From: a virus
Taxonomy: Duplodnaviria > Heunggongvirae > Uroviricota > Caudoviricetes
Length of the DNA stretch: 14,206 nt
IMG/VR virus record: IMGVR_UViG_2531839665_000025
Coordinates: 1-14,206 of that record
Direction: 5' to 3' (one strand)
The position numbers and the translations under genes are program-made. The notes below the pieces were generated by a model. That model was not told where the DNA came from and ran no database searches. It saw only the letters and a list, made by a program, of their open reading frames with translations. This document shows, piece after piece, positions 1-14,206 of the stretch. How positions within the stretch are numbered: position 1 is the first letter of the stretch; every line of letters starts with the position of its first letter.

Positions 1-1284
1 TTACTTCTTCGCCTCTGCAACCACTTTACTACCCACGCCGCGGTTATTGTATTCCCACATGCGGTTGTAGTTAGTGTCATTCAGATTGCGCTGTATTTCG
101 TCGTTATCATCTACGCTGCCGGTATTACCCGCAAACGGACGATTAGAGATCACCGCATCGGCCCACGGTTTAGCCGTGTTAAAACCTTCGTTGATGGCGC
201 TATCACGGATCACCACCTGACCGTTGGTATTGGCATCAACATCCAGCGAGCGGCCCAGTTGCGCCACACCATCACCGAAAGCATTGAAACGGCTGTTTAC
301 GGCGAGGAAACCGTAGTAAATGTTGGACAGCGTAGCCGGTGCAAACACATACGCTTCTTGCTGAGTACGTGAGTTCACCACGCGGAATTCGGTGTTATCG
401 AACACCACTGCGCCGCGACCAGAAACGATATCCACATCCCCTTCAATGTAGCTGTTGGTCACCAGCGTACGCGGCTGACGGTTGGTTTCCAGACGGTTCT
501 GCACACCGCTGTTGGTGACAAAGAAGGTGTTCTGACGACCGAGAATGTTAACGTTGTTAATCTGTACCTGGTCACCATCAGTACGCAGTGCCACCGCCGG
601 ATGGTTACCTGCATCTACGCTATCGCCCAGCGTGTTTTCGATGGTCAGATTTTGCAGTTGCAGGCCATTGTTTTGTGACCAGAAGACCGCAGAGCAGAGA
701 ACACCGATACTGTCGCTGCGTTTGCTCTGGCAGCTATCGTACATATACCACGCTGGTTTACCTGGCATATATTTGCCGCGCGGGTTGACGTCGTGACGCC
801 AGTCGGCAGGGCTCATGCCCCCATCAAGGGAAAGCCCAATCTTCACATCAATCGGTTTTTCACCTGTACCGTACAGAGTAATTCCACCCGGAGCAGCAGG
901 GACATACACCGTTCCCTGATACTCACCAGGCATCACGGCAATATACTGGCGCTTGTTAGTGCGCTTGATAATTGCCGCATCTACCGCCGCCTGAATCGTG
1001 GTATGCGTTACACCTTGAGTACCCGCCGGGCCGACAACAAAGTCAGGTTGCGCAGGCAGGGTAATCGGGGAAGGATTCCACGCTGCAGCACCTGGTGTCA
1101 GGGATGCAAAATAGTGTTGAGCATCGAAATTCTGCGCTTCTTTTGCCGACAGAATCGGGCGAGAAGAGGTACCAGGCGCGGTTTGATCAGAAGGACGTTG
1201 ATCGGGTGGTGTTGAGCTACAGGCGGTCAGCGTCACGCCAAAAGCCAATGCCAGCGCCAGACGGGAAACTGAAAATGTGTTCAC
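1..1284 (-). CDS. ybhC: Host gene ybhC: putative pectinesterase-family outer-membrane lipoprotein, complete, GTG start
   Basis: 427-aa ORF; N-terminus MNTFSVSRLALALAFGVTLTAC has a lipoprotein signal with lipobox-like LTAC; matches remembered E. coli YbhC, the gene flanking attB-lambda on the gal side. Start codon is GTG (plus-strand cac at 1282-1284). Confidence 0.85.
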   Translation of the reverse strand: MNTFSVSRLALALAFGVTLTACSSTPPDQRPSDQTAPGTSSRPILSAKEAQNFDAQHYFASLTPGAAAWNPSPITLPAQPDFVVGPAGTQGVTHTTIQAAVDAAIIKRTNKRQYIAVMPGEYQGTVYVPAAPGGITLYGTGEKPIDVKIGLSLDGGMSPADWRHDVNPRGKYMPGKPAWYMYDSCQSKRSDSIGVLCSAVFWSQNNGLQLQNLTIENTLGDSVDAGNHPAVALRTDGDQVQINNVNILGRQNTFFVTNSGVQNRLETNRQPRTLVTNSYIEGDVDIVSGRGAVVFDNTEFRVVNSRTQQEAYVFAPATLSNIYYGFLAVNSRFNAFGDGVAQLGRSLDVDANTNGQVVIRDSAINEGFNTAKPWADAVISNRPFAGNTGSVDDNDEIQRNLNDTNYNRMWEYNNRGVGSKVVAEAKK

Positions 1285-6289: not shown

Positions 6290-6444
6290 ACAGCCCCTCG
6301 TTTATTATTTATCTCCTCAGCCAGCCGCTGGGCTTTCAGTGGATTTTGGATAACAGAAAGGTCGGGAAATACCCAGCCTCGCTTTGTAACGGAGTAGACG
6401 AAAGTGATCGCACCTACCCGGATATTATCGTGAGGATGCTTCAT
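6262..6444 (-). CDS. Lambda orf60a-like small protein (60 aa from second ATG)
   Basis: [60 protein letters not shown]; ATG at 6442-6444 overlaps the lambda-frame exo stop as ATGA. Confidence 0.65.
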
Positions 6445-7120
6445 CGCCATTGCTCCCCAAATACAAAACCAATTTCAGCCAGTGCCTCGTCCATTTTTCG
6501 ATGAACTCCGGCACCATCTCGTCAAAACCCGCCATGTACTTTTCATCCCGCTCAACCACGACATAATGCAGTCCTTCACGCTTCATACGCGGGTCATAGT
6601 TGGCAAAGTACCAGGCATCTTTTCGCGTCACCCACATGCTGTACTGCACCTGGGCCATGTAAGCTGACTTTATGGCCTCGAAACCACCGAGCCGGAACTT
6701 CATGAAATCCCGGGAGGTAAACGGGCATTTCAGTTCAAGGCCGTTGCCGTCACTGCATAAACCATCTGGAGAGCAGGCGGTACGCATACTTTCGTCGCGA
6801 TAGATGATCGGTGATTCAGTAACATTCACGCCGGAAGTGAACTCAAACAGGGCTCTGGCGTCGTTCTCGTACTGTTTTCCCCAGGCCAGCGCTTTAGCGT
6901 TAACTTCCGGAGCCACACCGGTGCAAACCTCAGCAAGCAGGGTGTGGAAGTAGGACATTTTCATGTCAGGCCACTCTTTTCCGGAGCGGGGTTTTGCTAT
7001 TACGTTATGAACTTCTGAAGCTGTGATGACGCCGAGCCGTAATTTGTGCCACGCATCATCCCCCTGTTCGACAGCTCTCACGTCGATCCCGGTACGCTGC
7101 AGGATAATGTCCGGTGTCAT
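6425..7120 (-). CDS. exo: Lambda exonuclease (Red-alpha) with frameshifted C-terminus
   Basis: [43 protein letters not shown]... matches lambda Exo up to ...VPEFIEK, then reads [22 protein letters not shown] instead of [17 protein letters not shown]; the lambda-frame stop would be at 6441-6443. Confidence 0.85.
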
Positions 7121-9184: not shown

Positions 9185-10066
9185 TTATGACCACTTTTTG
9201 TTTGGGTTTCGTTGGTGAGCGTGGTTTACAGGATTATTTGATATACCCCATAACTCTGACTCGCTTATCTCTACACGAGAGAAAGACCTGCTTTCTTTCA
9301 GTTCTTTTATAAACCTAGAACCTAAGATGACATCTATTGTACCAGAAAGTTCTTGTAAAAGATCTATGTTTTTTCTGAGGAAGAAAATATCTTCTTTATA
9401 TTTAATTTTTACATAGAATTTATTCTGTATTTTTAATATATCAAAGCATGGCAGATATCTATATCCCTCATATTTTCGCCACTGCTTAACAATTATAACA
9501 TCTTTTTCATTTACTGCATTAATCAGCCCAAGACCAAGTACAGGTATGAATATTCTATTGTCTGCCGAAAGCGTACAATTATCACCACCAGGCAAATATG
9601 TATAAATCATGTCGGAATTTTTATACGCATCAACGAATGCACGTAAGAAGCGTACATATTTTTGCCATCCGTTTATACCGAATTTACCATATAAGTATTC
9701 TTTATTTGTTAGAAGAAAACTATTTGTATCAGGATCCTTATCTACAGACCTGTCGATAAGATCTCCAACTACGTTTACAAAGTCAAAGACAGAGTTTAAT
9801 AAGAACAATTGTCTTTCAGTAGGGCGAATTTCAATTATGTAGCCAGGATGAAGACGATATTGCATCTGCTTACGAAGTATACCGAACGCTTGGGTCCGAG
9901 CATCTGAAAGCAACTTCTTGTCGCCATCGCCGTGAGCATTGTTTCTAATAAAACTGATATAATTTGCTAATTTTTCAGCCTCTTTTTTGTGTTTTTTTCG
10001 CTCTGATGCTGAGTCTATTGGTTTTGGTATGGACTTGTAATCAATCTTCTTCATTACGTACCTCAT
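9185..10066 (-). CDS. Hypothetical 293-aa cytoplasmic protein encoded in an AT-rich cargo block between N and ea10
   Basis: Long ORF MRYVMKKIDYKSIPKPIDSASERKKHKKEAEKLANYISFIRNNAHGDGDKK...; no hydrophobic segments; visibly lower GC than the flanks; start ATG 10064-10066 overlaps the N stop (ATGA), alternative ATG 10052-10054 has SD GAGGT; no family recognised. Confidence 0.65.
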   Translation of the reverse strand: MRYVMKKIDYKSIPKPIDSASERKKHKKEAEKLANYISFIRNNAHGDGDKKLLSDARTQAFGILRKQMQYRLHPGYIIEIRPTERQLFLLNSVFDFVNVVGDLIDRSVDKDPDTNSFLLTNKEYLYGKFGINGWQKYVRFLRAFVDAYKNSDMIYTYLPGGDNCTLSADNRIFIPVLGLGLINAVNEKDVIIVKQWRKYEGYRYLPCFDILKIQNKFYVKIKYKEDIFFLRKNIDLLQELSGTIDVILGSRFIKELKESRSFSRVEISESELWGISNNPVNHAHQRNPNKKWS

Positions 10067-12535: not shown

Positions 12536-13375
12536 ATGACAAATACAGCAAAAATACTCAACTTCGGCAGAGGTAACTTTGCCGGACAGGAGCGTAATGT
12601 GGCAGATCTCGATGATGGTTACGCCAGACTATCAAATATGCTGCTTGAGGCTTATTCAGGCGCAGATCTGACCAAGCGACAGTTTAAAGTGCTGCTTGCC
12701 ATTCTGCGTAAAACCTATGGGTGGAATAAACCAATGGACAGAATCACCGATTCTCAACTTAGCGAGATTACAAAGTTACCTGTCAAACGGTGCAATGAAG
12801 CCAAGTTAGAACTCGTCAGAATGAATATTATCAAGCAACAATGCGGCATGTTTGGACCAAATAAAAACATCTCAGAATGGTGTATCCCTCAAAACGAGGG
12901 AAAATCCCCTAAAACGAGGGATAAAACATCCCTCAAATTGGGGGATTGCTATCCCTCAACACAGGGGAACACAAAAGACACTAATACAAAAGAAAATAGA
13001 AAAGATTATTCGTCAGAGAATTCTGGCGAATCCTCTGACCAGCCAGAAAACGACCTTTCTGTGGTGAAACCTGATGCTGCAATTCAGAGCGGCAGCAAAT
13101 GGGGGACAGCAGAAGACCTGACCGCCGCAGAGTGGATGTTTGACATGGTGAAGACTATCGCGCCATCAGCCAGAAAACCGAATTTTGCAGGGTGGGCTAA
13201 CGATATCCGCCTGATGCGTGAACGTGACGGACGTAACCACCGCGATATGTGTGTGCTGTTCCGCTGGGCCTGCCAGGACAACTTCTGGTCCGGTAATGTG
13301 CTGAGCCCGGCCAAACTCCGCGACAAGTGGACCCAGCTCGAAATCAACCGTAACCATCGCCGCACAGATGGTTAA
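12536..13375 (+). CDS. O: Replication initiator O (279 aa; C-terminus shorter than and different from lambda O)
   Basis: MTNTAKILNFGRGNFAGQERNVADLDDGYARLSNMLLEAYSGADLTKRQFKVLLAILRKTYGWNKPMDRITDSQLSEITKL... matches lambda O up to ...KWTQLEINRN, then ends HRRTDG. Confidence 0.9.
   Translation: MTNTAKILNFGRGNFAGQERNVADLDDGYARLSNMLLEAYSGADLTKRQFKVLLAILRKTYGWNKPMDRITDSQLSEITKLPVKRCNEAKLELVRMNIIKQQCGMFGPNKNISEWCIPQNEGKSPKTRDKTSLKLGDCYPSTQGNTKDTNTKENRKDYSSENSGESSDQPENDLSVVKPDAAIQSGSKWGTAEDLTAAEWMFDMVKTIAPSARKPNFAGWANDIRLMRERDGRNHRDMCVLFRWACQDNFWSGNVLSPAKLRDKWTQLEINRNHRRTDG
12884..13010. promoter_or_regulatory. ori-lambda: four O-binding iterons (ATCCCTCAAAACGAGGGA type) plus adjacent AT-rich region inside O
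   Basis: Iterons at about 12884-12903, 12904-12923, 12926-12947, 12950-12972, followed by an A/T-rich stretch acaaaagacactaatacaaaagaaaatagaaaagattatt. Confidence 0.85.
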
Positions 13376-14048
13376 CTTTGACCGTGAGCAGATGCGTCGG
13401 ATCGCCAACAACATGCCGGAACAGTACGACGAAAAGCCTCAGGTACAGCAGGTAGCGCAGATCATCAACGGTGTGTTCAGCCAGTTACTGGCAACTTTCC
13501 CGGCGAGCCTGGCTAACCGTGACCAGAACGAACTGAACGAAATCCGCCGCCAGTGGGTTCTGGCTTTCCGGGAAAACGGGATCACCACAATGGAACAGGT
13601 TAACGCAGGAATGCGCGTAGCCCGTCGGCAGAATCGACCATTTCTGCCATCACCCGGGCAGTTTGTTGCATGGTGCCGGGAAGAAGCATCCGTTATCGCC
13701 GGACTGCCAAACGTCAGCGAGCTGGTTGATATGGTTTACGAGTATTGCCGGAAGCGAGGCCTGTATCCGGATGCGGAGTCTTATCCGTGGAAATCAAACG
13801 CGCACTACTGGCTGGTTACCAACCTGTATCAGAACATGCGGGCCAATGCGCTTACTGATGCGGAATTACGCCGTAAGGCCGCAGATGAGCTTGTCCATAT
13901 GACTGCGAGAATTAACCGTGGTGAGGCGATCCCTGAACCAGTAAAACAACTTCCTGTCATGGGCGGTAGACCTCTAAATCGTGCACAGGCTCTGGCGAAG
14001 ATCGCAGAACTCAAAGCTAAGTTCGGACTGAAAGGAGCAAGTGTATGA
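13368..14048 (+). CDS. P: Replication protein P (helicase loader), 226 aa; lacks the first 7 residues of lambda P
   Basis: MVNFDREQMRRIANNMPEQYDEKPQVQQVAQIINGVFSQLLATFPASLANRDQNELNEIRRQWVLAFRENG... matches lambda P from residue 8; start overlaps the O 3' end; no obvious SD. Confidence 0.88.
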   Translation: MVNFDREQMRRIANNMPEQYDEKPQVQQVAQIINGVFSQLLATFPASLANRDQNELNEIRRQWVLAFRENGITTMEQVNAGMRVARRQNRPFLPSPGQFVAWCREEASVIAGLPNVSELVDMVYEYCRKRGLYPDAESYPWKSNAHYWLVTNLYQNMRANALTDAELRRKAADELVHMTARINRGEAIPEPVKQLPVMGGRPLNRAQALAKIAELKAKFGLKGASV

Positions 14049-14206
14049 CGGGCAAAGAGGCAATTATTCATTACCTGGGGACGCATAATAGCTTCTGTGC
14101 GCCGGACGTTGCCGCGCTAACAGGCGCAACAGTAACCAGCATAAATCAGGCCGCGGCTAAAATGGCACGGGCAGGTCTTCTGGTTATCGAAGGTAAGGTC
14201 TGGCGA
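14045..14206 (+). CDS. ren: Ren (Rex-exclusion protection), 5' partial of gene, runs off window end
   Basis: Hand-translated MTGKEAIIHYLGTHNSFCAPDVAALTGATVTSINQAAAKMARAGLLVIEGKVWR (54 codons, no stop in window); ATG 14045-14047 overlaps P stop (ATGA). Confidence 0.85.
   Translation, partial: MTGKEAIIHYLGTHNSFCAPDVAALTGATVTSINQAAAKMARAGLLVIEGKVWR

Follow-up and report, generated by a model that had tools for sequence, protein, structure and literature searches.

A probable strain-private 85-bp deletion at the O/P junction of a 434-immunity lambdoid prophage in Escherichia coli O145:H2 strain 4.0967

The effect of shortening the replication initiator O from its C-terminal end is known from alleles of phage lambda. 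In Oam205, the change of TAC to TAG at 39570 leaves an O of 294 of the 299 residues, with an EOP of 0 on a sup0 host (PMC6022878). Oam125, an amber at lambda 39511, is a null allele (PMC6022878); by computation this amber is codon 276 and leaves 275 aa. The O encoded by ilr541c is without its last 35 codons; the allele was selected as defective in replicative killing and does not complement (PMC6022878). The ilr class consists of small deletions and insertions in O-P selected in non-excisable prophages (PMC6022878). The authors concluded that O cannot do without its last five residues, yet a tag of 76 residues can be added to the protein (PMC6022878).

For the helicase loader P, the structure of the complex of DnaB with lambda P (2.66 Å) describes domain I, residues 1–29, as a "lasso" at the N terminus that is ordered in one chain out of five (PMC12661323). 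The lasso residues in contact with DnaB are Met8, Val9, Phe11, Asp12, Gln15, Met16, and Tyr27, an interface that the authors consider tentative (PMC12661323). An N-terminal deletion of P that abolishes function removes residues 9–86 (PMC3640518) and is therefore uninformative about residues 1–7.

Here, a lambdoid prophage in which the O/P junction is shorter than in these phages is described. The reading that best accounts for the observations is a real deletion of 85 bp, private to one strain, which probably leaves a 434-immunity prophage replication-defective; this would be ordinary decay, with no new mechanism.

The prophage and the gap at its O/P junction

The window, which is the whole stretch of 14,206 nucleotides that was analysed, is identical to the last 14.2 kb of contig AFAA02000033.1 (GCA_000194495.2; 1,265,706 bp), and the contig ends 1 base further. 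The record of the 279-aa O protein, EII32949.1, belongs to Escherichia coli 4.0967. AFAA is the Stx2-positive O145:H2 strain 4.0967, sequenced by JCVI and grouped with O103:H2 12009 in a whole-genome tree (PMC3359367). The prophage is a 434-immunity lambdoid prophage inserted at attB-lambda adjoining ybhC. The order of genes in the window is ybhC, attL, int, xis, a variable ea region, exo, bet, gam, kil, cIII, N, cI, cro, cII, O, P, and the start of ren. The prophage is known here up to ren; nin, Q, and the lysis and morphogenesis genes are on other contigs. The features referred to below are as follows, the truncated O and the shortened P being denoted O′ and P′.

1–1284, minus strand: ybhC
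6425–7120, minus strand: exo, with a −1 frameshift
12536–13375, plus strand: O′, replication initiator gene O, 279 aa (native residues 1–273 followed by HRRTDG and a TAA stop), from the list of open reading frames
12884–12968, plus strand: lambda-type origin with four iterons, inside O (lambda 39034–39118), from the annotation of lambda and 434
13354/13355, plus strand: deletion junction, with 85 bp missing (lambda 39505–39589)
13355–13375, plus strand: former P codons 3 (part) to 9, now in the O frame as HRRTDG and then a TAA stop
13368–14048, plus strand: P′, helicase-loader gene P, 226 aa (lambda P 8–233), starting MVNFDREQ, from the list of open reading frames
14045–14206, plus strand: 5′ part of ren, from alignment; the contig ends one base past the window

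Lambda positions of the iterons were converted to window positions by subtracting 26150. Among phages, 434 is the best match to the window, with 98.9% identity over 75% of its length. The closest chromosomal counterpart examined is the prophage of 434 immunity that occupies this site in E. coli 2015C-3163, with which the cI and cro proteins share 100% identity. The same holds for all but three of the 18 early proteins compared from int to cII, the exceptions being TraR (95.9%), a weakly matching hypothetical protein of 55 aa, and the frameshifted exo; the ybhC protein likewise shows 100% identity. Between N and the DUF2528 gene lies an ORF of 289 aa (9188–10054, minus strand) that belongs to phrog_12139, a family of unknown function. 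The last 20 residues of this ORF match the C terminus of Nun-like transcription termination factors (phrog_5632, E 5e-5).

Alignment with phage 434, lambda, and two E. coli prophages revealed a single clean gap, which is the sole indel within 1.7 kb of cII-O-P-ren. The original prediction had proposed a deletion of about 85 bp at this junction relative to lambda, and in all of these alignments the gap is exactly 85 bp. Lambda itself carries the 85 bp, and the prediction is thus not refuted by lambda having the short junction. The left flank, ...ATCAACCGTAAC (written further out, ...CAACCGTAAC), extends to window 13354, and the right flank, CATCGCCGCACAGATGG..., begins at 13355. The 85 bp comprise the final 26 codons of O with the TGA stop, the Shine-Dalgarno sequence of P, which in the parental sequence is contained in the 3′ end of O, and the opening 8 nt of P.

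No microhomology is present at the exact junction; an AAC(A) repeat occurs on both sides with an offset of one base. In parental 434, no direct or inverted repeat brackets the deletion, a 6-nt inverted repeat that does not bracket it being all that was found, and no significant fold joins the endpoints in a hairpin (z 0.18). These results give no support to a repeat- or hairpin-mediated deletion. The lack of microhomology at the exact junction is unusual among spontaneous E. coli deletions and counts against reading the gap as a real deletion.

The offset AAC(A) repeat also raises the question of whether the true event was a deletion of 86 bp between the repeats, CGTAAC-ATCGCC, with an extra C miscalled. 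Dropping one C restores the P frame, and the product would be an in-frame O::P fusion of 503 aa, O(1–273) joined to P(4–233). The assembly already has one possible homopolymer error, which is in favor of such a miscall. However, the record reads CC, and an overcall from one base to two seldom persists in a consensus. The predicted fusion junction was not found in 5,426 complete E. coli genomes or in IMG/VR, and the essential O tail would still be missing from the fused protein. The fusion is thus considered highly improbable, and the 85-bp deletion as recorded is retained in what follows.

Truncated O and shortened P

The open reading frame of O′ comprises native residues 1–273 followed by HRRTDG, and its C-terminal end reads ...LEINRNHRRTDG. 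That O would be both truncated and altered, ending in EINRNHRRTDG, was therefore anticipated correctly, but the extent of the loss had been underestimated: alignment shows that 26 residues are gone and not about 20. These are residues 274–299 (KQQAGVTASKPKLDLTNTDWIYGVDL), in whose place HRRTDG is found. The N-terminal part of the protein is intact. The Pfam domain PF04492 (Phage_rep_O) matches O′ residues 22–115 over profile positions 2–95 of 95 (E 6.8e-35; 119.9 bits against a cut-off of 28.7). O′ has the N-terminal origin-binding domain and the embedded iterons of a lambda-type O; it does not have the complete C-terminal, P-interacting domain. Within the origin, an A to C substitution at window 12960 (lambda 39110) lies in the center of iteron 4 and changes Lys to Thr in O. 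By alignment, this substitution is private to the window: it is not in lambda, 434, or the two closest prophages.

Among homologues, the C-terminal domain of O is conserved up to ...LRxKWxxL..., after which a tail of 25–35 residues differs between subfamilies. In lambda-type O proteins, which are paired with lambda-type P, the tail KPKLDLxNTDWIYGV(D/E)L is strictly conserved; the alignment of tails came from a homologue search with the O C-terminal domain in which all proteins returned were fragments no longer than 216 aa. An AlphaFold model of O residues 101–299, from an alignment of 17 sequences, has a mean pLDDT of 62, with a helical core at about 187–278 (pLDDT about 90). In the same model, the tail (280–299) is of low confidence, and the deletion endpoint falls within the last helix. 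As the PDB contains no solved O structure, the role of the tail rests on genetics and this shallow-alignment model. The model fits a flexible terminal peptide that would be needed for partner binding.

In O′, fewer native residues are kept (273) than in Oam125 or Oam205, and O′ is therefore predicted to be null. By analogy with these alleles, it is almost certainly dead as an initiator. The original prediction of impaired initiation in a defective prophage is favored by the null lambda O alleles (PMC6022878), to which O′ is likely to be equivalent. Without its C-terminal tail O′ would not initiate at its own origin, which is still present inside the gene. After derepression, the early genes would be expressed and replication would be absent, as might be expected of a decaying prophage. 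We infer that the truncation of O is an inactivating lesion in a gene required for lytic growth, the mark of a defective prophage. Rescue would be conceivable only by a co-resident lambda-type O acting in trans. Published data indicate that trans complementation of O works poorly; it is possible that the O/P of the strain's Stx2 phage supplies the function in this way.

P is affected differently. Physically, only its first 8 nt (ATGAAAAA) are deleted, with ATG1 and the Shine-Dalgarno sequence gone. The view that the first seven codons of P are missing is thus right in that they are unusable, having no in-frame start, but wrong as to the DNA: codons 4–7 (IAAQ) remain and are read in the O frame within HRRTDG. 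The first canonical in-frame start of P is Met8, as had been expected together with the absence of a Shine-Dalgarno sequence. The best anti-Shine-Dalgarno duplex in the 20 nt before the P′ start has an energy of +0.6 kcal/mol, compared with −6.6 for native P and −6.9 for O. The ATG of P′ precedes the O′ stop by 3 nt, and the two reading frames overlap by 8 nt (ATGGTTAA), in agreement with the overlap described at the outset. P′ has no Shine-Dalgarno sequence and, if it is made at all, would have to be translated by termination of O′ and reinitiation at the overlapping ATGGTTAA. A programmed frameshift from O′ into P was also considered and rejected: there is no slippery sequence in AAC CAT CGC CGC ACA GAT GGT TAA.

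As a protein, P′ may well be active. The Pfam domain PF06992 is complete on P′ residues 31–191 (1–162 of 162, E 5e-62), and P′ is 98.7% identical to P of E. coli 2015C-3163. With P of 434 as query, the lambda P chain of PDB entry 8V9T is matched over residues 1–233; chains of lambda P are also found in 6BBM. All seven lasso residues reported to contact DnaB are kept in P′, and only residues 1–7 are missing. Judged from its sequence, P′ appears to retain the conserved core and domains II–IV, including the C-terminal DnaB-binding lasso. Its own start codon, the Shine-Dalgarno sequence, and a complete N-terminal lasso (1–29) are lacking.

Two further features of P were noted. A private A to C substitution at window 14010 changes Ile to Leu near the C terminus (AEIKAKF to AELKAKF). 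The 3′ part of P contains a mosaic patch (window 13956–14016) in which the window sides with lambda and NT1F25; in O and the 5′ part of P, it sides with 434 and 2015C-3163 instead.

Could O′ and P′ still be a working pair, with P′ made by tight translational coupling and the prophage competent for replication? The overlap of the P′ ATG with the O′ stop (ATGGTTAA) suits termination-reinitiation, P′ retains its Pfam core along with the residues reported to contact DnaB, the model suggests that in the C-terminal domain of O the folded core is kept to residue 273, and the O tail differs among distant subfamilies. Against this, lambda O alleles that are longer than O′ (275 and 294 residues) are already null (PMC6022878), and the tail is strictly conserved in lambda-type O that is paired with lambda-type P. 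P′ has no Shine-Dalgarno sequence, and the allele is absent from isolated phages and from the other genomes searched. The re-wiring through translational coupling that had been offered as an alternative to a defect could at most explain the translation of P′ and brings no rescue of O. A functional pair is therefore regarded as very unlikely, and loss of replication through O′ is the preferred reading.

Rarity of the junction and reliability of the assembly

A junction query of 451 bp matches in two pieces that span 536 bp in 152 of 152 matching phage records. The same pattern was observed in all 60 E. coli records among the matches listed. Two pieces spanning 536 bp for a query of 451 bp indicate that these records carry the 85 bp. 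Among the matches listed, at least 24 complete genomes are 100% identical over the flanking 451 bp and have the 85 bp present. A junction-only query of 27 + 27 nt, in which each side is too short to seed a megablast hit, had no match in 5,426 complete E. coli genomes. The same query design matched the junction of a 12-bp deletion allele (six full-length hits), which serves as a positive control that the design works. Exact junction strings were absent from the GTDB species representatives, IMG/VR, and the JGI metagenomes, and the exact O′ protein of 279 aa is on record for one contig only, AFAA02000033.1.

These searches bear on the possibility, raised with the original prediction, that the short junction is the common form in functional lambdoid phages, as a natural polymorphism or a mosaic boundary. 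Other alleles in which P is readable only from Met8 do exist, namely a 12-bp deletion (six closed genomes and several drafts) and a 1-bp deletion (one run assembly), and could be taken to support a polymorphism. These alleles, however, are different lesions, and PGAP calls O a pseudogene in the 12-bp allele. The 85-bp gap occurs in 0 of the 152 matching phage records and 0 of the 5,426 complete E. coli genomes, and the 12-bp allele is in no phage-collection record. The 85-bp junction is unique across the databases searched; a short junction present in isolated phages or in many genomes was not observed. A normal polymorphism is regarded as highly improbable.

The prophage family that contains the deletion variant is common in O103:H2, O121, and related strains. 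Many intact prophages of related O103:H2 and O121 strains match the flanks with 100% identity, which indicates that the event is recent. The near-complete identity of the early proteins from int to cII with those of 2015C-3163 likewise places a recent deletion on the branch to strain 4.0967.

The restriction of the junction and the O′ protein to a single assembly is equally what an assembly or sequencing artefact would produce, in which O/P is intact in the strain and the gap arose in assembling a region repeated among co-resident lambdoid prophages. The window is the final 14 kb of a draft contig, and the junction is about 850 bp from the contig end; the contig stops in ren, 832 bp past the O′ stop. 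In other drafts there are forks near both endpoints, with five contigs beginning 1 nt ahead of Met8 of P and some partial O proteins breaking off at ...EINRNK(QQ). Draft breaks near both endpoints suggest that the segment is a typical graph "bubble" in genomes with several prophages.

The exo lesion, if it is a consensus error, lowers trust in the assembly further. Relative to the prophages of 2015C-3163 and NT1F25, a run of six A is reduced to five at 6494–6498, giving a −1 frameshift that swaps the last 17 Exo residues and produces an ORF of 231 aa instead of 226. The 231-aa product is on record only for contig AFAA02000033.1. The lesion, a private homopolymer frameshift, could be either a further step of prophage decay or a homopolymer consensus error. 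Because it is of the homopolymer type and the junction is about 850 bp from the contig end, an artefact retains some probability.

Other properties of the junction argue against an artefact. The endpoints share no common k-mer, the only repeat being the AAC one base out of register, which makes a mis-join unexpected in overlap and de Bruijn assembly alike. Single reads would span a deletion of 85 bp. The flanks are otherwise free of errors and 100% identical to relatives, and the contig is one of 1.27 Mb in a version-2 assembly. Six closed genomes carry real, independent small deletions at this junction, which demonstrates that such lesions occur. An artefact is consequently held to be unlikely, and a real, strain-private deletion is the interpretation carried forward. 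As a separate observation, the five draft contigs come from different assemblies and start at the identical base, GATGGTTAAC..., one nt before Met8. The shared start base suggests a recurrent fork of the assembly graph, at the boundary of sequence common to co-resident prophages.

Related alleles and known systems

The exact P′ protein is found on 18 contigs, where it is reached by other routes. The 12-bp deletion allele (GGATC|CGCC) removes TATGAAAAACAT, with the result that the O stop and the P ATG are lost and P is called from Met8. In this allele O loses L299 and reads on for 31 residues, and the native Shine-Dalgarno sequence is kept 12 nt upstream of Met8. It is present in 6 of the 5,426 complete E. 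coli genomes, including 2013C-4538 and the O118:H16 strain 2009C-4446, with O annotated by PGAP as a pseudogene, and is absent from all phage-collection records. A deletion of 1 bp in P codons 5–6 was found in one run assembly. In all three independent lesions (85, 12, and 1 bp), the native P start is lost or unusable, and P is readable only from Met8.

A broader proposal, that lambda-type prophages in Shiga-toxin E. coli are repeatedly inactivated in nature at the O/P junction, is at present distinctly doubtful. If it is true and driven by selection, hosts would keep prophages that are unable to start runaway replication within the chromosome, an escape from "replicative killing". Such prophages could still express an N-terminally shortened, DnaB-binding P, and the clustering of lesions at the O/P overlap would be a candidate for a preferred route of prophage domestication.

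For the 85-bp allele itself, the practical consequence is that O of the 4.0967 prophage should be annotated as a pseudogene and that inventories of STEC prophages should not include this one among the intact or inducible elements. Outside annotation, its significance is slight. The allele would correspond, in a natural setting, to the O C-terminal truncations known from the laboratory and lends support to the last ~26 residues of O being a separate, flexible, and essential tail.

The replication module is of the classical lambda/434 O-P kind. Compared with wild-type lambda and 434, the prophage is 98–100% identical in cII, O 1–273, the four iterons, P 8–233, and ren. In the wild-type phages O and P are also translationally overlapped (ATGA). 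They differ from the present prophage in having the 26-residue O tail, the P Shine-Dalgarno sequence (GGGGTGGAT), and P residues 1–7.

The 12-bp allele of STEC prophages resembles the 85-bp allele in several respects: it lies at the same junction, has no exact microhomology, abolishes the P ATG, leaving P to be called from Met8, and occurs in prophages only. The two also differ in distribution: at least six closed genomes have the 12-bp allele and a single draft has the 85-bp one.

The closest likeness in the lambda literature is to Oam125, Oam205, and ilr541c, in which O is cut C-terminally at 275, 294, and ~264 residues, respectively (PMC6022878). In these truncations, replication initiation is abolished although ori and the N-terminal DNA-binding domain are intact (PMC6022878). 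The lambda alleles are point mutations or laboratory-selected lesions in lambda itself; in contrast, the 85-bp allele comes from a wild prophage of the 434 type, also loses the O stop, the P Shine-Dalgarno sequence, and the P start, and adds six foreign residues. The 85-bp allele is a single-strain natural case of the known O C-terminal truncations and O-P lesions of replicative-killing survivors.
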